DNA of 64,000 bases, taken from NCBI RefSeq assembly GCF_004010195.1, contig NC_057734.1, positions 28,955,990 through 29,019,989 of the forward strand. The letters are read 5' to 3'. The notes beneath the pieces were generated by a model. The model saw nothing but the letters and a program-made list of their open reading frames with translations. It ran no database searches and was not told the DNA's origin. This DNA is from Chiloscyllium plagiosum. Its lineage: Eukaryota. A program made the position numbers and the translations under genes. Positions 416 to 63,784 of the stretch are shown piece by piece (within the stretch, counting starts at the first letter, position 1; each line of letters begins with the position of its first letter).

Positions 416-419
416 CCAC

Positions 420-862: not shown

Positions 863-1343
863 CTCTTTTGGAATTTATAGCAGAATGTTAGGATCAATAT
901 ACATTGCTTTGCACAAATTGGAGTCTAACTGTTCAAACCAAACATCAGAATATGGTTTGCATCTACTTTTGTTTATCATATTGACCAAATCCCTCCATAC
1001 ACAATATATTTTAAGTGACAGATGTAGAAAAGAATAACTGGCAGACATGTGCCTTCCCCCAGTGGATATGTTAACTTTGTTGTTCCATTCCATTCAAACT
1101 TCTACAGCTTATGAAAAACATCAGATCTTTCTTGGCTGTTCCTAATGAATACTTTCAGTGCTAAGTAATAACAGTGTGACAAATAATGACAATGTGACTA
1201 GGGACTGGCCATAAATGTTGGTGTGCCAACGATGCCCACATTCCACAAAAGAATGAATAAATTTTTTTAAAATGTTTTGTGGACAAAAATAACAAAAAAC
1301 ATTTATTTCTTGTGAGGTAACAGATGCAAACTCTTTCTATTCT

Positions 1344-1512
1344 AGTTAAAAATCACACAACACCAGGTTATAGGCCAACACGTTTAATTGGATGCACGAG
1401 CTTTCGGAGCGCTCCAAAAAGCTAGTTCTTCCAATTAAACCTATTGGACTATAACCTGGTGTTGTGTGATTTTTAACTTTGTACACCTCAGTCTAATACT
1501 GGCATCTCCAAA
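1344..1512 (+). mobile_element. PLE family B mini hairpin insertion
   Basis: Inverted arms ~1344-1410 / ~1411-1478, unpaired tail 1479-1512, TSD tctttctattct at 1332-1343 and 1513-1524. Confidence 0.85.
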
Positions 1513-1587
1513 TCTTTCTATTCTGTCGCCAATTGTTCCACTTCCTACCTCCACACTGCTTGGCTAATGACCTAGATGGACTGAGGG

Positions 1588-1938
1588 CATTGTTGTGAAG
1601 TTTGCCAATGACACAAAGCTAGGCAGCATTTATCTAAATTAAACTCCATCTGCCACTCCTCAGCCCACTGGCCATCTGATCAAGATCCTGTTGTAATCTG
1701 AGATAACCTTCTTCACTGTCCACTGCACCTCCAATTTTGGTGTCATCTGCAAACTTACTAACTCATTGTTGTGAAGTTTGCCAATGACACAAAGCTAGGC
1801 AGCATTTATTTAAATTAAACTCCATCTGCCACTCCTCAGCCCACTGGCCATCTGATCAAGATCCTATTGTAATCTGAGATAACCTTTTCACTGTCCACTG
1901 CACCTCCAATTTTGGTGTCATCTGCAAACTTACTAACT
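1588..1938. repeat. Tandem duplication (176/175 bp) of a head-to-head CR1 RT junction
   Basis: 1588-1763 and 1764-1938 are nearly identical; each unit is plus-strand KFANDTKLG followed by minus-strand KFADDTKIGG sequence. Confidence 0.9.
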
Positions 1939-2535
1939 GTACCTCTTATGCTGACATCCCAATCATTTAAGATTGATCATGATTTTACCTTAATTATAAA
2001 ATATATGTGCTAAGAAATGTCTGAGCCACTATCACCAATTCCACCCACCTCCAGAGAAATCATATTTCCTTCTTCAGCAGTGGGATGTTCTCAAAACTGT
2101 CAATCTAGTTCAGTTCAGTGGTCTTTGGCAATTAATATAATATGTTGCTCTTATGCTAAAAGCATGCAACAAATACAAAACATTTGCAATGATGAACTAT
2201 GATATAATTACACTAATTAAAACAACCTTTTTGTGAAGCAAGTTTTGATGGGTAGATTTGAAAGAAATGTTTTACTTAGAAGCAGAAATTCATGTTTGAA
2301 GGCAACAGGCTCTCGCTGTAGAATGCTTCCAATACACATGTTTGCTGAAGTACTACTCAAGTGGAGTCTTCAAAGAAAAGTGTCAATTTGATAGCTGCAG
2401 CCAAGCAACCATCAATAGCTGACAGAGATAATGAGATTGAGAAATACCAGCTCATGCACCACAGTCAGCTGAAATGCAGGAACATTCATATCAGGAAGAA
2501 TAGACCCAGAAGGTCAATCATCCAAGGTCCAAATA

Positions 2536-2579
2536 ACTGTTGGACTGTAACCTGGCATTGTGTGATTTTTAACTTTGTC
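2536..2579 (+). mobile_element. PLE family B short tail-less arm fragment
   Basis: tgttggactgtaacctggcattgtgtgatttttaactttgtc matches the family B arm end. Confidence 0.7.
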
Positions 2580-4440: not shown

Positions 4441-4444
4441 TCAT

Positions 4445-4880
4445 TGCTTTGAATTCATCTCCAATCTCCAGCTATACTTACTTTTTCTACTATACCTATC
4501 TTTAACCAACTTTCAATCCAATGCTGCTAATGGCCCATAATCCTAAACATATCTAATTTACTAACCAACCTGCCATGTGGCATGATATCAAATGTCTGAA
4601 AGTCCAAATATACAACATGCACAGCACTAACCTCATCTACTGCAAGTGTCACCTTGTCAAAGAACTCAATCAAATTTGTTAGACTTGACCTGTCCTTGAC
4701 AAAGCCCATGTTGATTGTCAAATATTAACTTATTTTCCTCCAGGTGTATATTTACCTTATCATGTATTTTGGCCTCTATCAGATTTCCCATCATTGTTAT
4801 CAAGCTGACAGGTCTGTAGTTTCCTAGATGAGCCTTTCCTAAACAATGGTGTCACATTGGCAATTCTCTCGTCCCTGGGA
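4445..4880 (-). mobile_element. CR1 LINE RT fragment
   Basis: GFVKDRSSLTNLIEFFDKVT...VVYLDFQTFDIMPHGRL (ORF 4527-4721). Confidence 0.85.
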
Positions 4881-8814: not shown

Positions 8815-10207
8815 CAGATTTGTATCATCAATAGCCACAGATGAGGTGCCAGAGACTGGAGGTTGGCTCATGCGGTGCCACTATTGAAGACAGGTGGTAA
8901 GGAAAAGCCAGGGAATTATAGACCAGTGAGCCTGACATTGGTGGTGGGCATGTTGGAGGGCATTGGTGGAGGGAATCCTGAGGGAGAGGATTCATATGTT
9001 TTGAAAGGCAAGGACTGATTAGGGATAGTCAATGTGGCTTTGAGCATGGGAGATCATATCTCACTAATTTAATCAAGGTTTTTGAAGAAGTAACGAAGAG
9101 GACTGATGAAAACAAGACAGGTGGACGTGATCTATATAGACTTGAGTAAGGCTTTCAACAAGGTTCCTTGTGGTAGACTGATTGGCAAGAATCTGGATTA
9201 GTGGTGCTGGAAGAGCACAGCAGTTCAGGCAGCATCCAAAGAGCCTGAACTGCTGTGCTCTTCCAGCACCACTAATCCAGAATCTGGTTTCCAGCATCTG
9301 CAGTCATTGTTTTTACCTACCTGATTGGCAAGAATACATCACATGGAGTAGAAGGAGAACCAGCCACTTGGATACAAAACTGGCTCAAAGGTAGAAGACA
9401 GAGGGTGATGGTGGAAGGCTATTTTTCAGATTGGAGGGCTGTGACCAGTGGTGTTTCATAAGGATTGGTGCTGCGTCCACTGCCTTTTGTCATTTAGATA
9501 AATGCTTTAGGTGTGAACAGAGGAGGTGTAGTTAGGAAGTTTGCAGATGACACCAAAATCAGAGGTGTAGTGAAAAGTGAAGGTTACCTTAGATTAACAT
9601 GGGATCTTGATCAGATGGGCCAATGGGCTGAGGAGTGACAGATGGAGTTTAATTTAGGTAAATGTGAGGTGCTGCATTTTGGAAAGGCAAATCAGGGCAA
9701 GACGCTTAATGGTCAGGTCCTAGGGAGAGTTGCTGAACAAAGAGATCTTGGAGTGCAGGTTCATAGCTCCTTGAATGTGGAGTCACATGTAGATAGGATA
9801 GTGAAGAAGGTGTTTGGTACGCTTTCCTTTATTGGTCAGTGCATTGAGTATAGGGGTTAGGAGGTCACGTTGTGGCTGTACAGGATATTGGTTAGGCCAC
9901 TATTGGAATGCCACATGCAATTCTGATCTCCCTGCTTTAGGAAGGACGTTGTAAAACTTGAAAGGGTTCAGAGAAGATTTACAAGGATGTTGCCAGGGTT
10001 GGAGGGTTTGGGCTATAGGGAGAGGCTGAATAGGCTAGGGATGTTTTCCCAGGAGCATCAGAGGTTGAGGGGGGAACCTGATAGACATTTATAAAATCAT
10101 GAGTGGCATGGATAGGGCAAATAGACAATGTCTTTTCTCTGGGGTGAGGTATTCAAAGCTAGAGGCCGTAGGTTTAAGGTGAGAAGGGAAAGATTTAAAA
10201 GGGTCCC
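8815..10207 (+). mobile_element. HER1/CR1 LINE ORF2 RT region, 5'-truncated, carrying a nested PLE hairpin
   Basis: PEDWR...GNYRPVSLT, KFADDTKI and KCEVLHFG motifs; highly similar to 24822-26418. Confidence 0.9.
9193..9320 (+). mobile_element. PLE family A mini hairpin (128 bp)
   Basis: Perfect 38-bp arms 9193-9230 / 9243-9280, tail 9281-9320, perfect TSD ctgattggcaagaat at 9178-9192 and 9321-9335. Confidence 0.9.
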
Positions 10208-10224
10208 ACAAAATGTGATGCAGC

Positions 10225-10540
10225 AAATAACCTCAGCTCTTTTGACAATATCATCTAAATTCATGACCTTTAACACCTAGAGGACTAGAGCAGCAAACAC
10301 ATGGGAACATCAGCAGCTGCAAGTTTGTTTCCAAATCATATGGCACATTCAGTTGGAAATATATGGCCATTCCTTCACTGTCAAAATCCTGCAACACCTT
10401 TCCAAACAGCTTTATGTGTGTACTTTCACCAGAGTGACTGCAGCAGTTCAAGAATGGGGTTCTTAAGGGCAGAAAGGGACAGACAATAAATAATTGGCAT
10501 TGCCAGAGATGCCTACAATCTATTAAAGAATAAAACCAAA
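10225..10540 (+). mobile_element. 3' region of an abundant shark non-LTR family (CR1/L2 group, here family X)
   Basis: catgggaacatcagcagctgcaagttt...gcagcagttcaaga...aagggcag...aataaat; recurs near 1195, 18.4-19.4 kb, 22.1-23.0 kb, 35 kb and 52 kb. Confidence 0.6.
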
Positions 10541-11734
10541 AATAGAGGAGCTTAGGAAAGGAATTCCAGAAAGTAGGGCCTAAATGACTGAGGGCGTAGA
10601 CATTATTGGTGAAGCAAAAATGGTGCAGATGTACAAAAGACCGGAATTAGAAGAATCAAAAGACAGGGAGAGGTGAGGCAACAGAGTGATGTAAACATGA
10701 GAATGAAGATTGTTTAATTTGACCTGTTGGACTGAAGGATCTGTTTCTGTGTGATCTAACTCAATGACTCTATGATTGGGAACCAATGAAAGTCAGCCAC
10801 AACAGACGAGTCAAGTTTATTCAGGAAGAGGTTGTGACTCTTTCTTGGAGATTCTGGAATAGTCAAGTCATGGTATAAGTGGGAGTTTCAACAGTAGGAG
10901 GTTCATAGGGCAGAAGTGAATAATGTTAAAAAGGTGGAAAGCGGTGGTCTCTGGTAGAAAGGAGATGGGGTTAGAAGCTAGCTAAGGGTTGTCTGGAATG
11001 CCAATGTTATAAACAATCTAATTCAGCCTGAGATAGTAGCTCAGGGTGGTGCTGGTACTATTGACAAGTAATTTGTGGCAAGGTTGTGATGATTGTGGTC
11101 TGCATAATGCTTAGTTAGAAGAAACTGTTGCTTATTAAAGACTTAATGACAGCAAGAACTATGGTACAGCTGATGATCAGAGTGCCTCATGGGAAAGGTG
11201 ATCCCATGCTTGTAAATTACATGGCAAAGGAAGAATAGATAAGAAAAGGAGGTCAAGGATAGATATTATTGCAATAGCAAAAATACAATACTGCTAAAGA
11301 AATGCTGCCTTTTCAAATGCTTAATCTCCAGATATCGTAACTATACAAAAAGAACATACATCAAGGATTATATGCAAAGTTATCACTTTGCTGCACAATT
11401 ACACAGCTATCGAAATGGTCCCCCTCCAGGCCAAGCACCAGTTAGCCCCTTTAACTGACCATGTGTACATATCCACATATACACACTTTAAAGAACCCAT
11501 GCACTTAAATTAATAGGACACATAACAAAAGATTAAAGAGAATGTTTCTTATAAACAGGAATAACAATTAGGTTACACCTTTATGCTTTCCAAAGCAATT
11601 TTCTTTGTTTATTTTCAGTAATTACTTTTATTATAATCGACCTTGCAGCTCTGGTGTGTCTATGACTGTCTCTGTATTCAAACTGTACCATCTTAAATCA
11701 AATTACACAAGACACTAATTAACATGTTGCCCTT

Positions 11735-19181: not shown

Positions 19182-19261
19182 AAGAAGGGCTTATGCTTCG
19201 ATTCTCCTGCTTCTTGGATGCTACCTGACCTGCTGCACTTTTCCAGCAACACATTTTTCAG
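19182..19261 (+). mobile_element. PLE family A solo tail-less arm
   Basis: aagaagggcttatgc...ttccagcaacacatttttcag flanked by the direct repeat ctgctacag (19173-19181, 19262-19270). Confidence 0.75.
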
Positions 19262-36957: not shown

Positions 36958-37070
36958 CAACCTCCAAGTGAAGCGAAGCTGTTGTCTCCTGCTTTCTATT
37001 TATATGTTTGTCCTGGACAAAAACATAAATAGAAAGCAGGAGACAACAGCTTCGCTTCACTTGGAGGTTG

Positions 37071-37110
37071 CCACTGATGATGTTACCTAGCCAGGTAATG
37101 AAACGTCTGG
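37071..37110 (+). ncRNA. Minimal hammerhead ribozyme (family C, right arm)
   Basis: cca CTGATGA t gttacct agcc aggtaat GAAA cg TC tgg: stem I cca/tgg, 7-bp stem II, intact core, predicted cleavage after C37107. Confidence 0.85.
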
Positions 37111-37434
37111 ATATCAAACCTACAGCTCAGGGAGCAAACCTACACCCTAAACCTCAACCTGAGCTACAAACCTTTACAAACCTTGCAAAAAAAGTAAGTT
37201 TCTATTGCAGACTTCGCTCGCATTCATAAAAAAATTATTACATTACATTCCTGCATTTACATGCTGTCTCATAATGAGAAATATTAATTCAACTGCAAAA
37301 CAGCTAATAAAATCAAGCAATGGAATCAAAATCCTACTTCAAAGAGCTTACAACATTTGGAGCTGTCAATCAAACTGGGAAGTAGCAGGTTTCCTTCCCT
37401 GTTAGTTGAAACTTGTAAAACACAGCACTAAGGA

Positions 37435-37850
37435 CTGTTTTCAATGGAGCATCGGAGGCTGAGGGGTGATCTTATAGAGGTTTATAAAATCATGAGGTGC
37501 ATGCATAGGATAAATAGACAAGGTCTTTTCCCCTGCGGTGAGGGAGTCCAGAATTAGAGGGCATAGGTTTAGGGTGAGAGGGAAAAATTTAACAGGGACC
37601 TAAGGGGCAATGTTTTCACGCAGTGGGTGGTGCATCTATGGAATGAGCTGCCCTAGGAAGTGGTGGAGGCTGGTACAATTGCAACATTTAAAAGGCATCT
37701 GGGAGTGTATAAATAGGAAGGTTTTAGAGGGATATGGGCTGGGTGCTGGCATGTGGGACTAGATTGGGTTGGGATATCTGGTTGGCATGGACGAGTTGGA
37801 CTGAAGGGTCTGTTTCCATGCTGTACATCTCTATGACTCTATGACTGTAT
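37435..37850 (+). mobile_element. HER1 LINE 3' end
   Basis: RLRGDLIEVYKIM...FTQWVVHLWNELP, tail (ctctatga)n, TSD agcactaagga / agcactcagga (37424-37434, 37854-37864). Confidence 0.9.
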
Positions 37851-37974
37851 AATAGCACTCAGGATAACGTCAACTGATAGAGTGAAATAGCAAGCACATT
37901 TTTAAATTTAAAGGGCAGATGTTTTACCTAGTTTTCAATGCCTTGACAGCTCTTACTGTAGCCTTTGATGGGGC

Positions 37975-42550: not shown

Positions 42551-42800
42551 TCCAAATAAGAATATTTTTAAAATGAGCATCTTTTGGAAGTCATCTGGTA
42601 AATAGTATGTAGTGAACACACAGTGAAGAACATCCATTAAATCAAGCTCAAAAGGAAAAACTCTAAAGATACTAGTTGGTTAACCTTTCAAAAGATAAGG
42701 CAATAGTTAGGATAACAAAAACAGAATAGACTAAAATTCAAGTTCTTAACATTAGAGACTGAGCTTGGCTCAACCTTGCCTTAGAATCATACAGGGACTA

Positions 42801-42917
42801 GGGGAAAGTGAGGACTGCAGATGCTGGAGAGTCAGAGTCAAAAAAGCACAGCAGGTCAGGCAGCATCCGAGGAGCAGGAGAGTCAATGATTTGGGCATAA
42901 GCCCTTCATCAGGAATG
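42801..42917 (-). mobile_element. PLE family A single arm with tail
   Basis: Minus strand cattcctgatgaagggcttatgccc...ctccagcatctgcagtcctcactttcccc. Confidence 0.8.
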
Positions 42918-44179
42918 TTACCGAATCATATAGTCATGCTAACATGCAAGGACATTGTACAAGAATGTCACAGGCTTAGCTGTTACACCTCTGACAAGTG
43001 AACATCCTACCATCACATTACAGCCTAAATCCATATGAAAAAGGCAATTTGGATGAGGTACTGGTTGGCCATGAGTCAATGTCGAACTGCACTTCAGACA
43101 GAAGTTGATCCTTGGTGACTAGAAGGAAGGAAATTAGCAGGGACACAGATGACATTCAGACAGTGAAAGAGGTAAGTTTGAAGCAGAGGATTTTGTGTAA
43201 GATCGTGAGTGAAGCATTCTAGAGATTACTGTCACAGTTCAAAGGCGTAGAGTGAGAAAGAGTTTTGACCTCTGTTAAATGTCCCAAACAAGTTCCTTCT
43301 GTTAATTTTGTGAGATGCAAGGTCCTACAAGGAGCAGTGAGATCAATGGCTCGGTGATCTGGTTTTGAGAATGCTGGCGGAGGGAGTAAGCTGGCCAAGC
43401 CACCATAAAAACTCCCTGCTCTTCTACAAAATTGTGTAGAATTGGGTAAAAGTTTTTCCATGGGAGCTTTAATTGTACCTTGGGAGCTTTAACTATACAA
43501 TGGGAGATTTAACCTGAAGAACAGCATCAGGCAGGTAGACATGACTTCTATGAAAATGATCCAAAACATAATGGTGTAGAATTAAAACCAGTGATATATA
43601 TTGACTGTACATAACAGAAACTGCCTGATCGTTCTTCTCTCTTATCAACGGAAAAAGTGCTTTCTGAAACTGGTTAGCAATCTGCGACAGCAGTTTTATA
43701 GCCAAGCATAGAAATCAAAATTTACCCCATGTGTCTCCAACAATTCTATTTTTTCCTTAATCCTTCACTGAAGTGTCAGCTTAGTTTTAAGTTGAAGATT
43801 TTGATTGGTATTGGCTTCCTTAATTCTGTAGGCAAAAAATCTAAAAACTAATTTAATTCATGGGAATCACATCCCAAATTAATTTGCTACTCTGTTGCAA
43901 CACTTGCTGGCAGATTACTTGAGGGATTCAAGCCACTCAATTCATATATGTGTGTGCTGTATGATAAATAAGATTATTTATCAACCTGACGTTCAAATTT
44001 CTGGCCTCAACATTGTGGGAGGGGAGGAAGGGTGTGCAGAATGTTGTAGATGATAACTTTTTTAAAAACTGAAAATGCAATAGGAAGGATACTACTCATA
44101 ACTGCTGACTTTTCTTTCATCAGTTCAGCTCTCCCCACACCCACTGATGGGGTGTGGAACTGAGTTACAAAATTACAGA

Positions 44180-45986: not shown

Positions 45987-46133
45987 TTGCATTGCAAAAT
46001 AATCTGAAAGCAAACAGCTTCAAATCCTTTTGTGTCTAACTGACCGGAATTCTTTTCCAGGCAGGTTAAGACCCTGTTCCCAGAAGTGCATGCACTGATC
46101 CAAAACATAACTTTCATCTGATGACACTCTGGT
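45987..46133. repeat. Donor of an inverted duplicate found at 47030-47177
   Basis: Reverse complement aligns to 47030-47177 with about 20 differences in 148 positions by eye. Confidence 0.9.
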
Positions 46134-46906
46134 CATCAGCTGTAACGATGACTCTTCCTTGATGCTCCGTGACAGATTGTTGAAGATTGTCCATTCGACT
46201 GTCAGTCACACATCACAGCAGAACACTCCGCATATATTAAATGATTGGTTTGAAATCTGCTCCCTGGTGTCTTTGCTAGAATGCCAAAGCCAAAACTGCA
46301 AAGACAGGCGCTTTTTAAAAAAAATCTGATCCTGCGGGGTTTGATGTCATTAGATCATATCTTAGAGTACTGTGTTTGTTGTGGGTTTCATTCAATAGAC
46401 CATTTGGGAATGGATGCCATGTCTGTGTTTGTTTACTCTTGCCAGTATCACACTGAATGACATTGTAAGTGACAGGGACCCTTGCCACCACTGGGATCCA
46501 CAGACTGTGTTTAGGCCTTAGATTTCAATGCCGTTTAGCTGGCAACCTTCCAGTCACAGGCAATGAATCAAAGATTCTTTCACAGATGCCTTTTTTAAAA
46601 AAATTAAATGATATTCTGTTCTAACCTGATAAATTCCAACTGTGCAATTAATGGTTTCAAAAGGTTTTGTGCATTGTAAGGGGCAGAACAGAAACCTTCT
46701 GAGCCATCACTGCATACCACCCTGCAAAATTATATTTCAAGTTTCCTCAGGCAATTCTTTTTTGGGATATGTATGTTTCTATTTTGGGCTGACAATCCTC
46801 AATGTAATTTAATATCAGCATTTATTCAGAAGTAGCAATAAGATGACCTTGGCTTGGTTACATTGTTGTCTGACAATCTCTGCTGAACATGAATATTCCT
46901 GATTTG

Positions 46907-47177
46907 GTGGTGCTGGTGTTGGACTGGGGTGTACAAAATTAAAAATCATGCAATACCAGGTTATAGTTCAACAGGTTTATTTGGAAGCACTAGCTTACGG
47001 AGCACTGCTCCTTCATCAGGTGGTTGTGTACCAGAGTGTCATCAGATGAAGGATATGTTTTGGATCAGTTTGTGCACCTTGTGGGAACAGGGTCTTAATC
47101 TGCCAGGAAAAGAATTCCAGTCAATTAGGTACAAGAAGATTTAAAGACGTTTGCTTTCAAATTATTTTGCAATGCAA
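46907..47177 (-). mobile_element. Composite insertion: PLE family B 3' end (46907-47029) plus captured local DNA (47030-47177)
   Basis: Flanked by perfect 15-bp TSD aatattcctgatttg (46892-46906, 47176-47190). Confidence 0.85.
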
Positions 47178-48155
47178 TATTCCTGATTTGCTCTGATAAG
47201 TTGATGTCCCGAACAAACTAACTCCACCCCAAATTTGTGACTTTATTTTGGGGCAGCTCTTTAAGAAGTTATAGTATTCATATGTAAGGAAACTCAGGGA
47301 CCTGACACTTACAAAATAGTAATTTTATTGTCCCGCCTTCAGGGCCAATGGGTTAGGCAGGACAGTTGAATGAAACGTTAGAGTCTCTGCATGCTTTACG
47401 TGAATTTCATTCTACCCAATTCATTCAGCAGATCCTGAGATATTGAGACAGACACTTCCACTCGTGCGAGTCTCTGCCCAACTACTGGAGCCGTTAGATG
47501 TACAAGGGAAGATATTAATCCAACTGGCACTGGAAGAAAAGATGATTTAAACAGTGTTGTCAATGACTTCTGCCACACATGTTCTCCACATTTTAAAAAT
47601 TGACTGGAACTAATTTTCTAGAAAGCTCAAGTTTTTTTTTCTCTTGACGCATTGCTAAATTCAGGCAGAGTGACAGGAATTTGGCATCGCTGGCTGTCTA
47701 TAGTTTCCCGCTGTGGGTGACAAGTACACATCCCGCCCCTAGACCCATAAGCCAGTAGAATGATTAAACAGCAAAATAAATCATTTCAACCTATCCAAGC
47801 TATTCTTCTAATCTAAACCTTTTATTTTTCCAAACAGAATCAAATCAGGGGCCAGTGCTGAAAATAAATCTTTTGGCCTGAGGTCTAACTACCTGAAGCC
47901 ACTTAAAACCAGTCCCTCTGATCCCACTGTCTTCATGCCCTGTCCCAATCTTAACCTGCTCTTTTGAGCAGCGAAGTGAGAGACTTTCCAAGGAGCCAGC
48001 AGGTTGCTATGTTAAGAGTGCAGACCAGGCTCGATGGTCATGAGGACTCATCATTAAATTTTGGTTGGAGTCCTGAGCAGGAGACTATTTGGATCAATCC
48101 TATCGAAAGACAGATCAAGGGGGCAGCAGTAGCCCAGAAGGTAAATTCCTCTTGG

Positions 48156-48464
48156 GTCAGGAAGGCTGCTCTTGATGTGACACAGAAGCTAGCCTTGCAA
48201 AGGGTTCCTGACTGTATGATGTGGCAAAATACCTGGCCTTCTCCAAATTTCTTCCCCCAGCCATGGCCTGAGCCTCATCCCACAAGCTCAGTGCCAACAC
48301 AATTTTAACCCTTTCACCACAGTCAGGAAGGCTGCTCTTGATGTGACACAGAAGCTAGTCTTGCAAAGGGTTCCTGACTGTATGATGTGGCAAAATACCT
48401 GGCCTTCTCCAAATTTCTTCCCCCAGCCATGGCCTGAGCCTCATCCCACAAGCTCAGTGCCAAC
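48156..48464. repeat. 143-bp direct duplication with a 23-bp spacer
   Basis: 48156-48298 and 48322-48464 differ at one base; spacer acaattttaaccctttcaccaca. Confidence 0.95.
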
Positions 48465-48713
48465 CAACCCCCACCTCCTCCACTCACCATACTGACTCTG
48501 GTCAGATCTACCCCTTCCATACTCACCACCTCCCTGCCATCCTCCATTCCTCTCCACTGTTAGGACTGCCTCCAGAGTCAATGGCTGTGACCTTCCGCCA
48601 ACAGATTCCAGATCCCCATCCCACCCCAAGAAGGAAAGGTTTGTTTTTTAAAAAAAACACAGTAATACTTGGAAATGAATGTCTTGGTCTCACTGCATCT
48701 TCATTTTGAAAGT

Positions 48714-50184
48714 CATGATTTGGAGGTGCCGGTACTGGACTGAAGTGGACAAAGTTAAAAATCACACAACACTAGGTTATATTCCAACAGGTTTATTTGG
48801 AAGCACGAGCTCTCGGAGCACTGCTCCTTCATCAGGTGGTTGTGGTGCAGAATCATAAGACACACAATTTATAGCAACAGGATTGCAGTGTCAGGGAATG
48901 TAATATTAAACAAATTTAGCTTAAGACTTTCATCTTTTAGAATGATGATGTTAGTTTTGGTTCCTTCATATATAAATCCCATAACTTGTTAAAAGTTACA
49001 TTCTCAAGGTAGCTTTTAACAATAGGTGCCATCTCAGCTCCAATCATGTTAGGTCAGACTGATTCTGTTTCTAAAGTGAGAGTTACAGAATCTTGCATTG
49101 ATTTACGCAGTTTTTGAGCAAAGTAAAATGTAATTCTGCAAGTAAAAATTCACCCCACAAACTTAAATGTGTGTGTGTGTGTGCAGGGTAGACTGAGTGT
49201 GTGTGGGTGTGGGTGTTGGGGGGGTGGGGGTGGGCATGTCTGTGAGTGAATGTGTGTCTGTGTGTGTATGTCAGTGTGTCTGAGTTTAATGGGGTATACG
49301 TTAGTGAGAGGGTACGTGTGAGAGTGTGGAGGGATGGGAGTGCGTGCATATGAGAGAGAACTTGTTATGAGAGAAGGTGTGTGTGGATCTGGAGGAGTGT
49401 GTATATGTGCGCGTTACTGTAGCCTTTGCTCGGCCTTGCCACTGTACCATGTCTCAGGGCATCCTTGCCTGCAGCATGGATACGGGCAATGGATAAATGG
49501 ACACTGCACAACAATCGCCAGACAGGAGTGTTTGCTCCCAGTCGGGGAACACTTCAACAGTCCAGGACATTTGACCTCCCACCTCCACACACACACCCAC
49601 ATGCTCACAGTCACTCAGTCTACCCTGTACACACACACACACTTAAGTTTGTGGGTGGATTTGTACTTGGCAGAATTACATTTTATTTTGCTCAAAAACT
49701 GCATAAATCCATGCAAGATTCTGTAACTGCCATTTAGAAACAGAATCAGTCTGACCTAACACTGGGACACAGACAGACTTTAACTTCACACTTTCAATGC
49801 ATTATCTGAGCTGAGATGGCACCTATTGTTAAAAGCTATCTTGAGAATGTAACTTTTAAAAAGTTCTAGGATTTATATATGAAGGAACCAAAACTAACAT
49901 GGTCATTCTAAAAGGTGAAAGACTTAAGCTAAATTTGTTTAATATTACAATCCTGTTGCTATAAATTCTGTGTCTTACGATTCTGCTCCACAACCACCTG
50001 ATGAAGAAGCAGCGCTTCAAAAGCTAGTGCTTCCAAATAAATGGATTATAACCTGATGTGGAAATGCCGGTATCAGACTGGGGTGGACAAAGTTAAAAAT
50101 CACAAAACACCAGGTTATAGTCCAACAGGCTATTGTCCAAATAAACCTGATGGACTATAACCTGGTATTGTGTGATATTCAACG
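48714..50184 (-). mobile_element. PLE family B large hairpin with GIY-YIG remnants and a nested second terminus
   Basis: Arms ~48750-49200 / ~49610-50055, central CRQGCPETWYSG (minus) and WINGH...PVGEHF (plus), TSD tcattttgaaagt (48701-48713, 50185-50197). Confidence 0.85.
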
Positions 50185-50449
50185 TCATTTTGAAAGTTCT
50201 AAGGTGACTCTGTAAGTGTGACCCATTCCCCATTTTACTGGTTTTACCTTCTGGGCCAGCAGCCATTTATCTATCTGGTTGTGACTCTGGAAAGCTTGAG
50301 TTAAATAAGGTTGTGCATCCTTTCTGAGCTTTCTAGGTGTGTAACCCACATCCAGCTCCCATACACCATGCCTGCAACTCCACCCCATCGCTCCACCCAT
50401 CCCTTTAAAAAAACAGCAATCTACTCTGTAACTTTCGTAGCTTACTCCA

Positions 50450-50870
50450 CTGCTCCCAAAAATAGTGCTTCCAAATAAACCCATTGGACTCTAACCAAGG
50501 ATGGCACGGTGGCTCACTGGTTAGCACTGCTGCCTCACAGCGCCAGGAACCTGGGATTAATTTCAACCTCGGGTGACTGTCTCTGTGGACTTTGCACTTT
50601 CTCACTGTTTCTGTGTGGGTTTCCTCCCACAATCCAAAGCTGTGCAGGTTAGGTGAATTGGCTCATAGTGTTCAGAGATGTATAGGTTAGCTGCAGTAGT
50701 CCAGGGTAAACATAGGGGAATGGGTCTGGGTGGGTTACTCTTTGGAGGGTAGGTGTGGACTTGTTGGGCTGAAGGGCCTGTTTCCACACTGTAAGGATAC
50801 TCTAACCTGGTGTTGTGTGATATTTTTAACATTGTCCACCCCAGTCCAACATCGGCTCCTCCACATCATG
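50450..50870 (+). mobile_element. PLE family B arm plus tail, split by an HE1 SINE
   Basis: tagtgcttccaaataaacc...ctaacc | ctaacctggtgttgtgtgat...ccagtccaacatcggctcctccacatcat. Confidence 0.8.
50497..50798 (+). mobile_element. HE1 SINE
   Basis: ggcacggtggctcactggttagcactgctgcc head; TSD actctaacc (50488-50496, 50799-50807). Confidence 0.9.
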
Positions 50871-52645: not shown

Positions 52646-53225
52646 CATTTCTTCTCCAAGGTAGATAGATTATCTGAGTAGCAGTGACTAAACAAGATGC
52701 AGGTCATATGAATTTACAAGTGGAGGAGGCTACCTGATGCTCTTCTGAGGATTATTTGAGAAGGTATAGATAAAGCAGATAATGGAACTCCCTGTACCAT
52801 ACCTTCTGTGGGCTTTCAGAAACCCTAAGGCAAAGTGCCATTTGAAAGGCTTCCAATTAAACTAACTTGCGCTGCAGAACTTGAAACTAAACAATACAGA
52901 TAATACTTCAAAGCGATGCAAGACATACATTTAACAATTTCATTAATCAGGTCACAAACAAAGGCTGATTCCTCTGGCTATGACAATGACCAGTAAAGAT
53001 CATAGTGCCATGATAAGGGATTAGCCATTTAATACTGAAACGTAGAGAAATTCTTTACTTGGAAGATTGTGAATCTTGAAATTCTCTACCTCAGAGAGTA
53101 CCACTCCGGATTAGCTCAGTCATTGAGTATATTCAAGCTTAAGATGGTGTTAGGGGATGAGTACTGGCATGGATAAAAAATTGGCTGACTGGAAGAAGGC
53201 AGAGAGTAGGGATAAAGGGATCTTT

Positions 53226-53691
53226 GCTTAAAAATGTGTTGCTGGAAAAGTGCAGCAGGTCAGGCAGCATCCAAGGAGCAGGAGAATCATCTTCTGCCTA
53301 GGAACCCTCCAACCACAAGGGATGAATGCAGATTTCTCCAGCTTTCTCATTTCCCCTCCCCCCCAGCTTATCTCAGTCCCAACCCTCAGACTCAGCACCG
53401 CCTTCTTGACCTGCGATCTTCTTCCCGACCTCTCCGTCCCCACCCCCTCTCCGGCCTATCACCCTCACCTTAATCTCCTTCCACCTATCGCATTCCCAAC
53501 GCTCCTTCCCCAAGTTCCTCCTACCTACCCTTTATCTTAGTCTGCTTGGCACACCTTCCACATTCCTGAAGAAGAGCTTATGCCCGAAACGTCGATTCTC
53601 CTGCTCCTTGGATGCTGCCTGACGTGCTGCGCTTTTCCAGCAACACATTTTTCAGCTCTGATCTCCAGCATCTGCAGTCCTCACTTTCTCC
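53226..53691 (+). mobile_element. PLE family A hairpin with GIY-YIG C-terminus
   Basis: Arms 53226-53288 / 53594-53656, tail 53657-53691, IIFCLGTLQPQGMNADF (PLE endonuclease C-terminal motif), perfect TSD ataaagggatcttt (53212-53225, 53692-53705). Confidence 0.9.
53564..53595 (+). ncRNA. Minimal hammerhead ribozyme motif (family A)
   Basis: tc CTGAAGA a gagc ttat gccc GAAA cg TC ga; stem II is gggc/gccc in the copy at ~42900. Confidence 0.75.
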
Positions 53692-53876
53692 ATAAAGGGA
53701 TCTTTTTCAGGATAGCAGCCATTGACTAGTGGAGTTCTGCTCGGGGTCAGTATTTGGACCACATTAATTCATGTTATACATTAACAATCGAAACAAAATT
53801 TGGAGGTGCCGGTATTGGACTGGGGAGTACAAAGTTAAAAATCACCAGGTTATAGTCCAACAGGGTTATTTGGACA

Positions 53877-53912
53877 CCCTAGCTTTCGGAGCGACGCTCC
53901 TTCATCAGGTGG
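53877..53912 (-). ncRNA. Minimal hammerhead ribozyme motif (family B, left arm)
   Basis: Minus strand cac CTGATGA a ggagc gtc gctcc GAAA gc TA ggg. Confidence 0.7.
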
Positions 53913-54481
53913 TTGTAGAGTTTCAAATCGTAAGACACAGAATTTATAGCAAATGTTTATAGTGTGATGTAACTGAAATTATATATTGAAAAAGACCTGG
54001 ATTGTTTGTTAAGTCTCTTTTAGAATGAACATGTTGGTTTCAGTTCTTTCATATGTAAATCGCAGAATCATTTTAAAGTTACATTCTCAAGTGAACTTTA
54101 ACAATTGATGTCATGTCGGCCCTGAATAATGCACTGAAGGTGTGAGGTGCCCTGCGTGCGACTGTGCCACAATGTTCAGACTGATTCCAAACTAAAAAAC
54201 GGATTTACAGAATCTTACATGGCTTCGTGCCGTTTTTGAGCAAAGTAAAATGTAATTCTGCAAGTACAAATTCACCCCAAAAACTTATATTGTGTGTGTG
54301 TGTGTGTGTGCAAGTGGGGGTGTGTGTGGAGGCGGGGGCTGTTATGAGTGTGAGAGAGTGTGTGTATGTGTGTGAGGGTGAGTGTAAAGGGGTTTAAGTT
54401 TGTGAGAGGGTGTGTGTGTGCGTGTGAGTGTGGGAGTGTTTGTGTGAGCTTATGCGAGAAAGCTTGTGTATGAGAGAGGGT

Positions 54482-55143
54482 CCGTAATGACCTCCTCAGG
54501 AGACAGACAAGAGCTGCAACCGACAGGGTACCCTTTGTTGTTCAGTACTTCCAGGAGCCAGAAAACTACACCAGGTTCCTCGCAGCCTGCAACACATTAT
54601 CAATGAGGATGAGCACCTCGCCAAGACCTTCCCCACGCCTCCACTCTTGCCTTTAAACAACCACCAAACCTCAAACAGATCATTGTTCGTTGCAAATTGC
54701 CCGGTTTTCAGGACAACACCATACAACCTTGTCACGGTAGATGCTGCAAGACGTGTCAGAGTGTGAACATGGATACCACCATTAGGCGTGGGGACAACAC
54801 CCACCGTGTACGTGGCAGGTACTCATGTGACTCAGCCGACGTTGTCTATTGCGCGCGCTGCAGGCAAGGCTGCCCTGAAGCATGGTAGATTGGCAAAACT
54901 AAGCAGAGGCTACGGCAGCAGATAAATGGACACCGCACAATAATCAACAGACAGGAGTGTTCCCTCCCAGTCGGAGAACACTTCAGCTGGCCAGGACATT
55001 CCACCTCAGAGCTTCGGGTGACGGTCCTCCAAGACGGACTTTGGGACAGGCAACAAGTGGTCGAGCAGAGGATGATCACCAAGTTCCGTACCGATGGGGA
55101 TGGCCTCAACTGGGACCTTGGGTTCATGTCACACTACAGGTGA
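54482..55143 (+). pseudogene. PLE ORF C-terminus: RT thumb/linker, Cys-rich motif and GIY-YIG endonuclease (disrupted)
   Basis: RVPFVVQYFPG...PCHGRCCKTC...YSCDSADVVYCARCRQGCPEAW*IGKTKQRLRQQINGHR...PVGEHF...EQRMITKFRT.G.GLN; the Cys motif before the endonuclease is a Neptune-clade feature. Confidence 0.85.
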
Positions 55144-55850
55144 CCCCACTGTGCGCGCACACACACACACACGTGCATACACACTGACAGATAACAGACG
55201 GATACACACATAGACACAGACAGACAGACACTCCTACACACACACACATGCCTACAGACTCATGATCCTTCCAACTCATACACTCATGCAGACCCTCTCT
55301 CATACACAAGCTCTCTCTCATACACAGACACGTATACTACCACACACACACACCCTCTCACAAACTTAAACCCCCTTTACACTCACATTCATACACATAC
55401 ATACTCTCTCACAGACACTCAAAACACCCCCCATCTCCATACACACCCCCACTTGCACAACACACACATATAAGTTTGTGCGGTGAATTTGTACTTGCAG
55501 AATTACATTTTATTTTGCTCAAAAACTGCATGGATGCATGTAAGATTCTATAAATCTGTTTTTTAGAACAGCATCAGTCTGACCATTGTGGCACAGTCTC
55601 ACACAGGGCACCTCACACCTTCAATGCATTATCGGGGCTGACTTGGCACCTATTGTTAAAGTTCACTTGAGAATGTAACTTTCAAAAAGTTCTGCAATTT
55701 ACACATGAAAGAACTGAAACCAATATGTTCATTCTAAAAGATGAGAGACTTAACAAACAATCCAGGTTTTTTGCAATATATAATTTCAGTTACATCACAC
55801 TGTAAACATTTGCTATAAATTCTGTGTCTTATGATCTCATACTCCACAAC

Positions 55851-55885
55851 TACCTGATGAAGGAGCAGCGCTCTGAAAGCTAAAG
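55851..55885 (+). ncRNA. Minimal hammerhead ribozyme motif (family B, right arm)
   Basis: tac CTGATGA a ggagc agc gctct GAAA gc TA; stem I is degraded. Confidence 0.6.
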
Positions 55886-55987
55886 CTTCCAAATAAACTT
55901 GTTGAACTATAACCTGGTGTTGTTGTGAGATTTTTAACAATCTAAACAAAGGAATTGAGGGCATTGCTGCTAAGTTTGCAGGTAAAC

Positions 55988-56750: not shown

Positions 56751-57006
56751 TAGAGGGGCAGATATTGTTGAGGAAGTGGGGAGGGTACAGAAGGACTTGG
56801 ACAGCTAGGAGTGTGGGCAAAGAAGAGGCATATGAAATACAGTATGGGAAAATGAAAGGTTATGTATTTTTGTCAAAGGTACAGAGGAGGAAGTGCTGGA
56901 TGTCTTGAAACAGTTAAAAGTGGATAACTGCCCAGTTCCTGATCAGGTGTACCCAAGGACTCTGTGGGAAGCTAGAGAAGTGATTGCTGGGCCTCTTGCT
57001 GAGATA

Positions 57007-57118
57007 GCTGGAGATCAGAGATGGAAATGTGTTGCTGGAAAAGCGCAGCAGGTCAGGCAGCATCTAGGGAACAGGAGAATCGACGTTTCGGGCATTAGCA
57101 TTCCTGAAGAAGGGCTAA
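57007..57118. mobile_element. PLE family A hairpin cut by the gap
   Basis: Minus-oriented arm 57007-57098, then the start of the plus arm ttcctgaagaagggctaa. Confidence 0.8.
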
Positions 57119-58068
57119 NNNNNNNNNNNNNNNNNNNNNNNNNNNNNNNNNNNNNNNNNNNNNNNNNNNNNNNNNNNNNNNNNNNNNNNNNNNNNNNNNN
57201 NNNNNNNNNNNNNNNNNNNNNNNNNNNNNNNNNNNNNNNNNNNNNNNNNNNNNNNNNNNNNNNNNNNNNNNNNNNNNNNNNNNNNNNNNNNNNNNNNNNN
57301 NNNNNNNNNNNNNNNNNNNNNNNNNNNNNNNNNNNNNNNNNNNNNNNNNNNNNNNNNNNNNNNNNNNNNNNNNNNNNNNNNNNNNNNNNNNNNNNNNNNN
57401 NNNNNNNNNNNNNNNNNNNNNNNNNNNNNNNNNNNNNNNNNNNNNNNNNNNNNNNNNNNNNNNNNNNNNNNNNNNNNNNNNNNNNNNNNNNNNNNNNNNN
57501 NNNNNNNNNNNNNNNNNNNNNNNNNNNNNNNNNNNNNNNNNNNNNNNNNNNNNNNNNNNNNNNNNNNNNNNNNNNNNNNNNNNNNNNNNNNNNNNNNNNN
57601 NNNNNNNNNNNNNNNNNNNNNNNNNNNNNNNNNNNNNNNNNNNNNNNNNNNNNNNNNNNNNNNNNNNNNNNNNNNNNNNNNNNNNNNNNNNNNNNNNNNN
57701 NNNNNNNNNNNNNNNNNNNNNNNNNNNNNNNNNNNNNNNNNNNNNNNNNNNNNNNNNNNNNNNNNNNNNNNNNNNNNNNNNNNNNNNNNNNNNNNNNNNN
57801 NNNNNNNNNNNNNNNNNNNNNNNNNNNNNNNNNNNNNNNNNNNNNNNNNNNNNNNNNNNNNNNNNNNNNNNNNNNNNNNNNNNNNNNNNNNNNNNNNNNN
57901 NNNNNNNNNNNNNNNNNNNNNNNNNNNNNNNNNNNNNNNNNNNNNNNNNNNNNNNNNNNNNNNNNNNNNNNNNNNNNNNNNNNNNNNNNNNNNNNNNNNN
58001 NNNNNNNNNNNNNNNNNNNNNNNNNNNNNNNNNNNNNNNNNNNNNNNNNNNNNNNNNNNNNNNNNNNN
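57119..58068. other. Assembly gap (950 N)
   Basis: Run of N. Confidence 1.
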
Positions 58069-58566
58069 CAGAGGGTGGTACGTGTATGGAATGAGCTGCC
58101 AGAGGATGTGGTGGAGGCTGGTACAATTGCAACATTTAAAAGGCATTTGGATGGGTATATGAATAGGAAGGGTTTGGAGGGATATGGGCCAGGTGCTGGC
58201 CGGTGGGACTATATTGGGTTGGGATAACTGGTCGGCATGGATGGGTTGGACCGAAGGGTCTGTTTCAATGCTGTACATCTCTATGACTCTATGACTCTAT
58301 AATAGCGAGTTGGACTATTTTCCAAATGAGGAACAGCTTTGACAATCACAAAGGAACTTGGGAGTCTTTGTTTAGGATTCTCTTGAAGTTAACATGCAGG
58401 TTCAGTTGGCAGTTTGGATGGCAAATACTACGTTAGCATTCATTTTAAGATTGTTAGAATACAACAGCAAAGATGTGCTGCTGAGGCTATATAAGTCTCT
58501 GGTCAGATGCAATATTGTAAGCAGTATTGCGCTCTGTATCTAAGGAAGGACGTGCTGACCTTGGAG

Positions 58567-58760
58567 ACAGGAGTCGAGCGTGTGGTGCTGGAAAAGCACA
58601 GTAGGTCAGGCAGCCTCTGAGGAGCAGGAGAATCAGTGTTTCAGGCAAATGACCTTCATCAGGAATCTGCTCCTCAGATGCTGCCTGACCTGCTGAGCTT
58701 TACCAGCACCACACTCTCGACTCTAATCTCCAACATCTGCAGTCCTTGCTTTTGCCTTTT
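58567..58760 (+). mobile_element. PLE family A hairpin
   Basis: Arms 58571-58627 / 58667-58723, tail 58724-58760, TSD tgaccttggag (58556-58566, 58761-58771). Confidence 0.85.
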
Positions 58761-59125
58761 TGACCTTGGAGGGGATCCAGAGGAGGTTTACAAGAAAGAT
58801 CCTGAGGATGAAGAGCTGGTCATATAAGGAACAGATGAGGATTCTGTATTCAATGGCGTTTAGAAGGATGAGGGGGATCTCATTGAAATGTGCAGAATAC
58901 TGAGAGGCCTAGATAGAGTGGACATAGGGAAGATGTTTCCACTAGTAAGATAGACTGGGACCTGAGCACATAGCCTCAGAGTTAAGGGATGACCCTTCCA
59001 GAACTGAGATGAGGAGGAATTTCTTCAGCCAGTGGATGGTTAATCTGTGGAACTCATTACCACAGAAAGCTGTTGAGATTAAATCACTGAGTATATTTAA
59101 AATAGAAATAGATAGGTTTTGATTC

Positions 59126-60540: not shown

Positions 60541-60544
60541 ATGT

Positions 60545-60815
60545 GGGTGGCACAGTGCAGCCTCACAGTGCCACGGACCTATGTTCAATTCCAGCTTGGG
60601 GCAAATGTCTGTGCACAGTTTGCATATCCTCTCTGAGTCTTCATGGATTTCTTCTGGGTGCTCTGGTTTCCTCGCACAGTCCATAAATGTTTAGGTTAGG
60701 TGGATTGGCCATGCAATGTGTGTGTGTGTCAGGGGTGGGAGTGGGTCCTCTTTGGAGGATCACTGTGGACTCGATGGGCCAAATGGCCTGCTTTCACATT
60801 GTAGGGATTGTATGA
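60545..60815 (+). mobile_element. HE1 SINE, degraded
   Basis: gcctcacagtgcc...ggtgctctggtttcc...gggccaaatggcctgctt...gtagggattgtatga. Confidence 0.8.
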
Positions 60816-60854
60816 TTTGCTGCATAGCAAACTTGGATTATGAAGTGAAATAAA

Positions 60855-61458
60855 TATGTTATGGGTGTTTGCAATCCCTTTACAGTCACCTAAAGGACCA
60901 TTTTCGCTGCTTTTGGTTCCACTTCAGCCCCACACTCCTGATCTTTGGGCGCCCAGTGCGGAGGGGTACTGGGCAGATCAGAGGATCTCTTCATGGGTCT
61001 GCTCCTAGGCCTGGTCAGGCTGGTCATGAACAGGTCCAGGCAGCTGGCTGTGGAGGAGCTTATTTTGACCAACTGCCTGCCGCTCCTCCGTGGCTATGTT
61101 CGAACCCAGCTGTCCTTGGTGAGGGAGCATGTGGTGCCCACCAATGTTCTCGATGCTTTTAGGTGGAGATGGGCACCGCAGAGGGTGGAGTGATTTACTT
61201 CCCTCTCTATTCTATTTTGATTTGATCCCTACTCTCTCTCTTCACTTTTTTTTCACGTAAGTATTGCCTTTGTCAGGCTTTGCTTATTCCTGCTTCCCTG
61301 GCCACATGGGGGAGTTTTCCCATTGGTGGAATATTGAATAGAATTATTTACAGAAGTGGTGTTTTCACTGAGTCCTTGCACCTACACACGCATGACAAAG
61401 GGAGGGAAAATAAACACCACTGCTGTACAGCAGGAGTGTGGGGAGAAGGAAAAAGAGG
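60855..61458 (+). mobile_element. Tx1-like LINE ORF2 C-terminus and 3' UTR
   Basis: FWFHFSPTLLIFG...EDLFMGLLLGLVRLVMNRSRQ...LDAFRWRWAP; ends in purine-rich gaaggaaaaaga. Confidence 0.7.
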
Positions 61459-63034
61459 ATTTAGAATCTCTTAAAAAAAATCAAAGGAAGGAAGGTTGGC
61501 CTAGAGTTCACCAGTTCCATGGTAAAATTATTGAGTGGTCAGGTGGTATGAAGTAGGATGGAGGATTTTCCGGGCCCAACACTCATCGGTCAGCAAGTGT
61601 TAAATTCGACTCATGGAATGTTAATTGTTATTTGCTTTTCAATTTTACAAGAGCAAAACTAAACATTTTCTACTAAAGTAAATGACTCAAGACTTGCAAC
61701 ATTTTGTATCCTCATTCTTTCAGCGAGGTTGGCGCTTGCTGTTTGCCAGTTTCTGCATAGACCCTAAGAAAGACGAAATCCAACAAAAGATTCTTCTATA
61801 CAGTGCATGTAATTCCCTCCATGAGCTTAGCCCAAAATGATCTGAACAATCTGCATTCTCTGTTGCTATCAGAATAGTTTTGACTCTTTGGGTGGAATAT
61901 TCTGTGCCCAAATGAAGACCTAGTCATACCATCCCAAGAGTATGGAATAGGGATGGGATGTGCAACCATAGCCTCCCCCTTGGCATTGTGGTATACAGTA
62001 CTTGAGCTGCCAGCCTCTGATTGGCCGACTGGTCCAGTTGGCCAGGTTATCCATCCCTGGGGTCCTTGTCAGGATGAAGACCGGCAAGTGTCCACTTAAG
62101 TGCCTGATGGGCACAAGATCTAGTGGACTTCCCTCAAAGAGTCAATATGCAGGCAGTGGGCAAGACACTCACCTCATCACAAAGAATGTATCTTTTGTTG
62201 CTGGAGCAAATGTCACTTCCTCTGCAACATTGTCCCAAAGAACCACATTAGAGGTTCAGTACATCAAAGGGTAATCAGCATCATAAGTATCAGAGGCCAG
62301 CATGATCCTGTGTTTACTTGATGTTGAAATTAAATTATTTTTAGCTAGGACTGAGCAATCATGACTGATTTTCCCCTTCCTAACCCCAAAGGTCGACATT
62401 TGACAACTGTGCGAGTATCCTCGTTCTGATAAGCCAACACAACACAGACCCAACGCAGCCCAACCATAAAGCCTCAAATTTACTGATGCTGTGCTGATAT
62501 CTATTCAAACAGAAAGAAATCCTGTCCCTTTGGCACTGAAATGACTGGTGCAGTAAGTCTAGAAGAAGATAGCTGACAGTTAGACTGTACTCAGCAACAC
62601 CCAAAGGACTTGGAATCAAAGATGCAAGACATGAAAAGCTGCCAAGCCAAGATTTCTAGAACAGTTTTCCATTCCTCTGCCAAGTAGCTGCCCCAAGTAC
62701 ATATACCCCAAACTGTTTATTCATGAACTTGCAACTGTTCAATTGATGTCCTAGCCAAAGTATTCATATAACCTTACAGCTCTTTGAATACCTGCCACTA
62801 CAACCACAATCCTGCAGCAAAATACAAATACAAATTATAAGTTACATCAGAAACTCAGGTGCACACTTCAAATATTTCTAATGAAACCTGTTGAACTTCT
62901 GCACATTCTTTTAGTAATGCACAAAATGGGCTGCGAGTTAAGTGAATATTTCATGAATGAATGAGCTGTTTCTCCTTGCAGCACATCAAGACTAAAGCCT
63001 GAACATTTAATGGGATAATTTAGGCAAAGTGTAG

Positions 63035-63232
63035 ATTAGAGTGGTGCTGGAAAAGCACCGCAGGTCAGGCAGCATCCAAGGAACAGGAAAATCGATGTTT
63101 TGGGAATAATGAAGGGTTTTGCCCAAAATATCAATTTTCCTGCTCCTTGGATGCTGCCTGACTTGGTGTGCTTTTCCAGCACCACTCTAATCTTGTCTCT
63201 GATCTCCAGCTTCTGCAGTCCTCACTTTCACA
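63035..63232 (+). mobile_element. PLE family A hairpin
   Basis: Arms ~63033-63104 / ~63122-63193, tail 63194-63232, TSD ttaggcaaagtgtag / ttagccaaagtatag (63020-63034, 63233-63247). Confidence 0.85.
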
Positions 63233-63784
63233 TTAGCCAAAGTATAGCCAGAGTCCTGATTCAGGAGTTCCTGCTTCCAAACCCAGAATGTACAGCTTTC
63301 ATTGGGGTATCAATAGAGAAGACTGCACATGTCAAATTGCCTTCAAATAAATTTAAGTTAGCAGAATTTCTCAAACACAGCTTGTAGTCTTTAGACTTGA
63401 AGAAAACGTAAGGTACCCTTTGGGATGGATGATCATAAAAATTGGACAAGTTCTGTGGACTGTCAAGTGTTTGAGCCATTTAAATCTCCTACCCATTATA
63501 TTTCAAAAACTCAATTTAAAATAATTACTGGTTACAATTTAACATTGACTTATGCATGAGGTTTCTCATTGTAGGCTTAGTACTGCATGACTCATTCCAT
63601 AACCTATCATTATAGAAGTGGGGTGCCTATCAGTTCACAATTTGACCTGAGCCTGTGTTGGTCACAAGTGCTCGTGACTTGACATGCCACAGATGACCAT
63701 TCCATTTGGTTGAGCTGCCCTGCCATGCCTTAACTTATACTTTTACATTAGTTTCCTTACTATAACTTCAGTTACTTTAATTAA

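Follow-up and report, generated by a model that had tools for sequence, protein, structure and literature searches.

The stretch analyzed here (the window: 64,000 nt of contig NC_057734.1 of Chiloscyllium plagiosum, positions 28955990–29019989 in a genome of 3.56 Gb) carries nine hairpin-like insertions, built from inverted copies of the 3′ end of an element and flanked by target-site duplications (Table 1). They are truncated insertions of three families of Penelope-like retroelements, referred to below as A (insertions starting at 1344, 28427, 48714 and 53798), B (9193, 53226, 58567 and 63035) and C (36880). When the window was compared with itself, all nine insertions (9/9) of a preliminary description were found at their listed starts and in three families, each as an inverted pair with a one-sided overhang; the arm bearing the overhang is called tailed and its partner tailless. 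The earlier account of each insertion as two inverted copies needs qualification for 48714, which is compound and has four arms. Sizes of 128–2136 bp agree with the range of 128 bp to 2.1 kb given before, and the tails, which in positional order measure 31, 40, 33, 39, 39, 35, 33, 33 and 41 nt, differ from the earlier values by no more than about 4 nt, keeping in mind that tail values shift with the placement of the duplication edge (that of 28427 becomes about 29 nt if its 14-bp duplication is used).

The target-site duplications had been described as clean, which holds for the seven with at most one mismatch but not for the weak duplications of 28427 and 63035, with two mismatches each. Four insertions (9193, 53226, 53798 and 58567) lie in host repeats, whose paralogs hold the duplicated bases once and lack the insertion, as predicted, with exact overlaps of 15, 14, 17 and 11 bp, respectively; the duplication of 9193 is present as a single copy in 19 empty-site paralog hits. 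No empty-site paralog was found among the sampled loci for 1344, 28427, 36880, 48714 and 63035.

Table 1. Penelope-like insertions and related features of the window (positions are those of the window; LINE, long interspersed element; ORF, open reading frame)
Feature	Position	Strand	Target-site duplication	Details
Family A (Neptune-type) hairpin	1344–1509	+	1329–1343 / 1510–1524, 15 bp, 1 mismatch (12 exact)	right-side tail
Family B (subfamily B2) hairpin	9193–9320	+	9178–9192 / 9321–9335, 15 exact	within CR1 LINE
Solo tailless family B arm	19182–19261	+	9 bp	start in hammerhead core; absent from earlier list
Family A hairpin	28427–28922	-	28413–28426 / 28923–28936, 14 bp, 2 mismatches (weak)	left-side tail
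Hammerhead core in 28427 hairpin	28837			pattern match
Family C (Penelope/Poseidon-type) hairpin	36880–37187	+	36862–36879 / 37188–37205, 18 bp, 1 mismatch (12 exact)	arms 97% complementary
Hammerhead core in 36880 hairpin	36954	-		
Hammerhead core in 36880 hairpin	37074	+		
Solo tailed family B arm	42792–42922	-	8 bp	stops at hammerhead core; absent from earlier list
Family A tailed arm plus inverted host copy	46907–47175	-	46892–46906 / 47176–47190, 15 exact	147-nt inverted copy of 45987–46133 (87%); absent from earlier list
Family A compound insertion	48714–50184	-	48701–48713 / 50185–50197, 13 exact	
Tailed arm of 48714	48714–49477			
Tailless arm of 48714	49485–50059			
Second tailed arm of 48714	50054–50129			
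Second tailless arm of 48714	50135–50184			
Family B (subfamily B1) hairpin	53226–53691	+	53212–53225 / 53692–53705, 14 exact	tailless arm 63 nt, tailed arm 405 nt
Family A hairpin	53798–55933	-	53781–53797 / 55934–55950, 17 bp, 1 mismatch	
Decayed C-terminal ORF piece in 53798 tailless arm	54652–55143	+		Cys-rich linker, GIY-YIG endonuclease with CCHH motif, one in-frame stop
Family B hairpin	58567–58760	+	58556–58566 / 58761–58771, 11 exact	inside CR1 ORF
Family B hairpin	63035–63232	+	63020–63034 / 63233–63247, 15 bp, 2 mismatches (weak)	

The assignment to Penelope-like elements, already proposed in the preliminary description, is borne out by a reverse transcriptase (RT) with a YIDD motif in families A and B, a GIY-YIG endonuclease domain in all three, and predicted hammerhead ribozymes. 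RT is followed by endonuclease in the long copies L062, L103 and L082, and every copy is decayed; the stretch matching the ORF piece of insertion 53798 is open in loci L065 and L066. Pfam matches to RVT_1 were above the cut-off for B (E 1e-7) and below it for A (4e-5), the GIY-YIG match of B was below the cut-off (E 3.5e-4), two of five proteins gave no match to that domain, and none of the window endonuclease pieces matched Pfam above the cut-off. A search of solved structures returned no match for the family A RT. Translations of all three families contain the CCHH motif, named for the Penelope-like endonuclease in PMC8557442 (this and other papers are cited from the parts of their text that were available). 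A CX2-5CxxC linker, common to Neptune and Nematis according to the same source, precedes GIY-YIG in A and B and is absent from C, the ORF of which begins within the hammerhead. By these motifs, rather than by a tree, A and B are classed as Neptune-type and C as Penelope/Poseidon-type.

RT identity is 32% over 151 aa between A and B and 34% between B and C, and no cross-family blastn match of the terminal 80–133 nt was better than E 0.35. The families had been said to lack obvious similarity, and this stands for their termini in blastn but not for the hammerhead core, which is common to all three: a minimal hammerhead with core, stem II and GAAA is predicted by pattern about 113–128 nt from the end in each. 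An Rfam scan gave no match at the gathering score and misses these hammerheads. One locus, L062, has a pseudo-long terminal repeat (pLTR)–ORF–pLTR arrangement, and in tandem copies of all three families the pLTR continues into the ORF start. The inverted pLTR and 30–40-nt tail that characterize endonuclease-containing (EN+) Penelope-like elements are thus present in these families. Further copies (L143, L187, L086:7673, L073:7955 and L176) represent at least two additional Poseidon-type subfamilies and at least five subfamilies of family B, with the same layout.

To place the window in the genome, we used a blind set of 100 stretches of 10 kb taken at round coordinates with their content unseen (964,857 non-N bases), to which targeted loci were added. 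Arms were located with terminus profiles for the three families, built after removal of satellite pairs from L170 (at L170:3640-10000 a satellite of about 24-bp period has family B tailless arms embedded in it, at 4550–4626 and 9257–9331). The blind set held 288 arms, 146 tailed, 135 tailless and 7 unclassed, with bimodal ends, and a reference-free search likewise yielded overhangs clustering near 0 and 30–40 nt. Across all loci there were 311 candidate head-to-head pairs, of which 116 were bounded by a duplication, in a search window that let either class of arm sit at either end; as a measure of chance, 6 of 600 pairs of arms taken from different loci attained this duplication score. Duplications measured 10–21 bp (median 14, mode 15, with a search floor of 10). 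The 44 duplication-verified hairpins of the blind set correspond to 1 per 22 kb. The same pipeline recovers six of the nine in the window, about 1 per 10.5 kb or some twice the blind-set density, so the one per 7 kb reported before does not hold as a general density and reflects a local high.

The pairs follow a simple rule. A tailed arm was joined to a tailless arm in 107 of the 116 duplication-bounded pairs; seven were ambiguous, one was scored as two-tailed and one as two-tailless. On inspection the former was a tailless arm plus filler and the latter a false, element-internal match. A second set, in which L196, L226 and L256 overlap earlier loci and which is therefore not fully independent, gave tailed plus tailless in 28 of 30 pairs, with two ambiguous. 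No clean two-tailed or two-tailless pair occurred among the 116 + 30 pairs. If the two starts assorted freely, mixed pairs would be expected to make up half. The median tail was 37 nt in A (n=21), 37 nt in B (n=59) and 39 nt in C (n=23), four rows with failed tail alignment being left out, which upholds the claim of one offset across families. Solo arms with duplications, tailed and tailless alike, also occur. In the family C insertion L004:1490-1915 the sense arm extends about 100 nt beyond the usual terminus into the ORF, which suggests occasional starts further downstream.

The inner ends of the arms vary independently. Relative to its tailed partner, the tailless arm reached further upstream in 40 of 107 insertions (by up to 2.2 kb), to within 15 nt in 33 and less far in 34; the corresponding counts for the blind set were 20, 14 and 11. 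Among insertions with an arm longer than 300 nt, the tailless arm went further in 16 of 35 (Spearman 0.10, p 0.55), and in family B the reaches were uncorrelated (rho 0.09, p 0.5, n=52). Within the window, the tailless arm of 53798 (54482–55933, about 1.45 kb) outreaches the tailed arm of about 0.65 kb. Cases of this kind were checked in 18 ORF-start loci, 13 of them chosen for an apparently tailed adjacent short arm: six duplication-bounded insertions of 2.5–3.9 kb span the ORF start, five with exact duplications, and in 6/6 the long ORF-bearing arm is tailless and the tailed arm short.

These lengths bear on the proposal that a single cDNA begun at the terminus folds back, self-primes and copies to about 37 nt short of its own start, or, in a variant given as the published reading in PMC3846280, self-primes on an antisense template. 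Similar reach in 33 of 107 insertions, some near-palindromic junctions, especially in family C, and the agreement of arm subfamilies in 32/32 classifiable family B pairs count in its favor. Since the tailless arm can outreach the tailed one, as in the 40 insertions and the six near full-length cases, fold-back copying is ruled out as the general route; the absence of correlation in B and the existence of solo tailless arms speak against it as well, and the family C palindromes had been fetched by likeness to one hairpin. We consider this explanation quite improbable: it is contradicted as a general route and might still hold at most for a minority of hairpins that are symmetric.

Central junctions were nearly all different, with 75 distinct coordinates among 77 short insertions, and thus the hairpins were not copied as units. 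The warning that they could be taken for miniature inverted-repeat transposable elements (MITEs) was well placed: of the outcomes that would have pointed that way or against a common offset, namely fixed, repeated hairpin centers and random tail length, neither was seen. A MITE-like origin, in which a DNA transposase copies whole hairpins, might be read from the clustering of sizes near 150–240 bp and from two junction coordinate pairs that recur once each. It is nevertheless extremely improbable, given the lack of a common internal junction, the asymmetric ends, the variable duplications of 10–21 bp and the continuity of the arms with RT and GIY-YIG coding sequence. The size peak is accounted for by arms that stop at the hammerhead core. 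In one instance (L153:8729 and L141:4819) family B hairpins at different sites share an identical central junction, which reflects either a hot spot of microhomology that was used repeatedly or, as a rare event, the copying of an entire hairpin.

Of the core-reaching arms of A and B (not fetched by likeness), 76 of 97 stop within -13 to +12 of the hammerhead core, a density of 4.7 stops per 100 nt, compared with 0.73 downstream and 0.2 upstream. Hammerhead cleavage was considered as the cause of truncation and is not supported, with 7 of 41 stops at +27 to +31 (p 0.14). Family B copies that include the ORF start begin at -7 to +14 in 15 of 29 cases, with 2 further upstream. No sequencing run listed for holders of the family is recorded as RNA, and raw reads from a species that carries it derive from many dispersed copies, with no point at which many molecules begin or end.

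Both outer ends of the insertions share short stretches with their targets. Mean microhomology was 1.56 nt at tailless ends (n=102) against a null of 0.71, and 1.80 nt at tailed ends (n=65, the rows out of 107 that match a continuation reference) against 0.72; with exact duplications only, the values were 1.51 (n=67) and 1.40 nt (n=43), respectively. The null was two-sided, and none of 3000 simulations reached the observed values, exact-only included; a one-sided shuffle null (0.46) had been found too low and was replaced. Locus L191, with an element-internal duplication, was removed from this analysis onward. In the window, 58567 has a 6-nt microhomology at its tailless end. Two bases outside the duplication, a G was enriched on the tail side (44/106, p 5e-7) and weakly on the other (33/106, p 0.007, 16 tests), for the most part in family B; this hints at a two-fold symmetric cut. 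Simple fold-back is excluded by the combination of a single tail in each insertion, arm lengths that vary independently and microhomology at either outer end.

Families A and C each yield a 7-bp consensus stem with a 28-nt loop; the loop contains the proximal start, and the tail contains the 3′ strand of the stem. In 14 hand-picked C sequences, 98 of 98 stem cells pair, with one two-sided change confined to one subfamily; this change is a single event, lies in coding sequence and was found in a structure derived from the same sequences. For family B, no consensus stem emerged. The stem-loop is a lead for what might act as a ruler for the offset of about 37 nt.

The tail could instead arise before integration, if a head-to-head double-stranded DNA intermediate formed first and the GIY-YIG endonuclease cut it at two places about 37 nt apart. 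Such resolution would likewise yield one tail per insertion; PMC8557442 attributes the tail to endonuclease resolution of an intermediate, and earlier work cited in PMC11167929 has the Drosophila enzyme requiring the tail for recognition. Both ends, however, map to RT start sites determined in vitro (PMC11167929) and show primer-like target microhomology, and in A and C they fall in or just after the conserved stem-loop, which indicates recognition of RNA. We regard resolution of this kind as unlikely.

Two separate insertions, of which the later was directed in opposite orientation to the 5′ junction of the earlier, would be in line with the compound structure of 48714 and with insertion into the element's own pLTR, as proposed in PMC11167929. 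One duplication, however, spans both arms, with an exact empty-site match in the four window cases, and sequential events would enforce neither the one-tail pairing nor the agreement of subfamilies between arms, which extends to finer subtypes in 12/12 pairs. This makes two separate events very improbable. The agreement of subfamilies fits one source for both arms, and also fits subfamilies active at different times.

We propose that the insertions were probably made by double target-primed reverse transcription, with each nicked strand priming a cDNA. The RT/GIY-YIG protein, probably as a dimer, would nick both strands about 14–15 bp apart, and each freed 3′ end would pair with element RNA over 1–4 nt. 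A start by one primer at the distal site would produce the tail, the other primer would use the proximal site, and the two starts would be coupled so that each site is used once. The two cDNAs would then stop independently of each other, and in short copies of the Neptune-type families most stops would fall at the 5′ edge of the hammerhead core; the 3′ ends of the cDNAs would be joined through microhomology or filler, and each would template the second strand of the other. Where one primer was unproductive, a solo arm of either kind would result. A lizard protein, predicted to form a dimer, does nick and extend both strands in vitro, with two starts that bracket the tail (PMC11167929). We lean, with less assurance, toward a stricter form of double priming in which the asymmetry is obligate: the two subunits of a dimer would start at RNA sites about 37 nt apart, set by the stem-loop, one per nicked strand, so that the element would make two first strands and never need target-primed second-strand synthesis, and hundreds of thousands of hairpins in this genome would be left as its fossil record in two clades.

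Several observations weigh against double priming. The in vitro start site was apparently the same for both strands (PMC11167929), and because no strand difference was seen there, the coupling of starts is left unexplained by that system. Microhomology at tailless ends could come from end joining instead, and single-sequence pLTR folds did not outperform those of shuffled sequences (z 0.5 to -1.8). Only about half of the tailed arms (64/128) are accompanied within 1.5 kb by a tailless arm in head-to-head orientation, and among unpaired arms a duplication was found in 15 of 67 tested, several of them false, against 9 of 201 in the control. Few ORF-start copies begin at the hammerhead stop in A (3/25, 10 upstream) or C (5/26, 11 upstream); the core may mark either the 5′ end of the RNA, which fits B and not A or C, or a structural stall. 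Finally, the evidence consists of old genomic copies, with a median arm identity of 93% (range 70–100%).

Elsewhere in the window, the insertion at 46907 has captured host DNA from 0.9 kb upstream in place of a tailless arm. A family A sense arm with tail (50430–50869) is interrupted by a short interspersed element (SINE, about 50497–50798) with a short duplication, and no outer duplication was found for this split arm. Decayed CR1 LINE copies lie at 8818–10775, 24820–26418, 37428–37856 and 56879–58306, one with an RVT_1 match, and several hairpins are nested within CR1 sequence; the CR1 LINEs and tRNA-type SINEs of the window presumably resemble those of sharks. A 202-aa open frame at 272–880 (+), without a Pfam match, is taken by us to resemble the piece of a LINE ORF2 between endonuclease and RT. 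Near-perfect two-copy tandem duplications at 1588–1938 (176 bp) and 48156–48464 (166 bp) are either recent or assembly artifacts. A 950-base run of N (about 57119–58069) adjoins a family B arm at 57007–57103, the partner of which may lie inside the gap; assembly gaps are often found within long inverted insertions (L080, L116 and L131).

The layout itself is not new. Inverted truncated copies with a tail at one end and a target duplication are published for EN+ Penelope-like elements, including Adineta vaga Pen2a (PMC3846280; see also PMC8557442) and Drosophila virilis Penelope (PMC2377424), which also share an ORF start inside the pLTR or tail and a minimal hammerhead in the pLTR. The structure is known in fish (PMC3846280) and the tail in a lizard (PMC11167929), so that its occurrence in a vertebrate is less notable than the preliminary description held. 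Flatworm hammerheads, too, occur in pairs on opposite strands, 100–700 bp apart (PMC4209133). What sets the present families apart from these accounts, as far as the available parts go, is a very high copy number, made up mostly of stubs of 120–320 bp, duplications that center on 14–15 bp rather than the 8–10 bp of rotifer examples (PMC3846280), and a tail that is optional or at either end in published accounts and here occurs once per pair with almost no exception. Family C most resembles Poseidon of Anolis carolinensis (PMC11167929): in both, the ATG falls within the hammerhead core, the loop at the proximal start is AC-rich and the tail is flanked by two start sites. The terminus lies about 110–115 nt past the ATG in C, compared with 111–118 in that study, the available text of which offers no explanation for the inverted arm. 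Families A and B differ from Poseidon in being Neptune-type.

PMC8557442 lists the origin of the inverted arm and tail as an open task, PMC11167929 leaves it to steps that lack validation, and our literature search, with subscription papers outside it, found no text with a counted one-tail rule, independent arm lengths or double priming for Penelope-like elements. The counts reported here constrain this open mechanism and yield a prediction that bears directly on the in vitro system already in place. Scaled roughly from 0.96 Mb, the genome would hold 160,000 hairpins verified by their duplications and 500,000 ends with a tail that could be misfiled as MITEs, and the divergence between arms can date each insertion, as pairs of long terminal repeats do.

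In LINE-1 twin priming, a second nick primes a second cDNA, and an inversion with a microhomology junction results inside one target duplication. In LINE-1 the internal site at which the second primer anneals varies, and each cDNA copies a different part of the RNA, whereas in the present families the second start keeps a constant distance of about 37 nt from the first and two copies are made of the same 3′ region. With MITEs these insertions have in common short size, abundance, hairpin shape and flanking duplications, and they differ from them in their asymmetric ends, locus-unique junctions, long variable duplications and retroelement origin.

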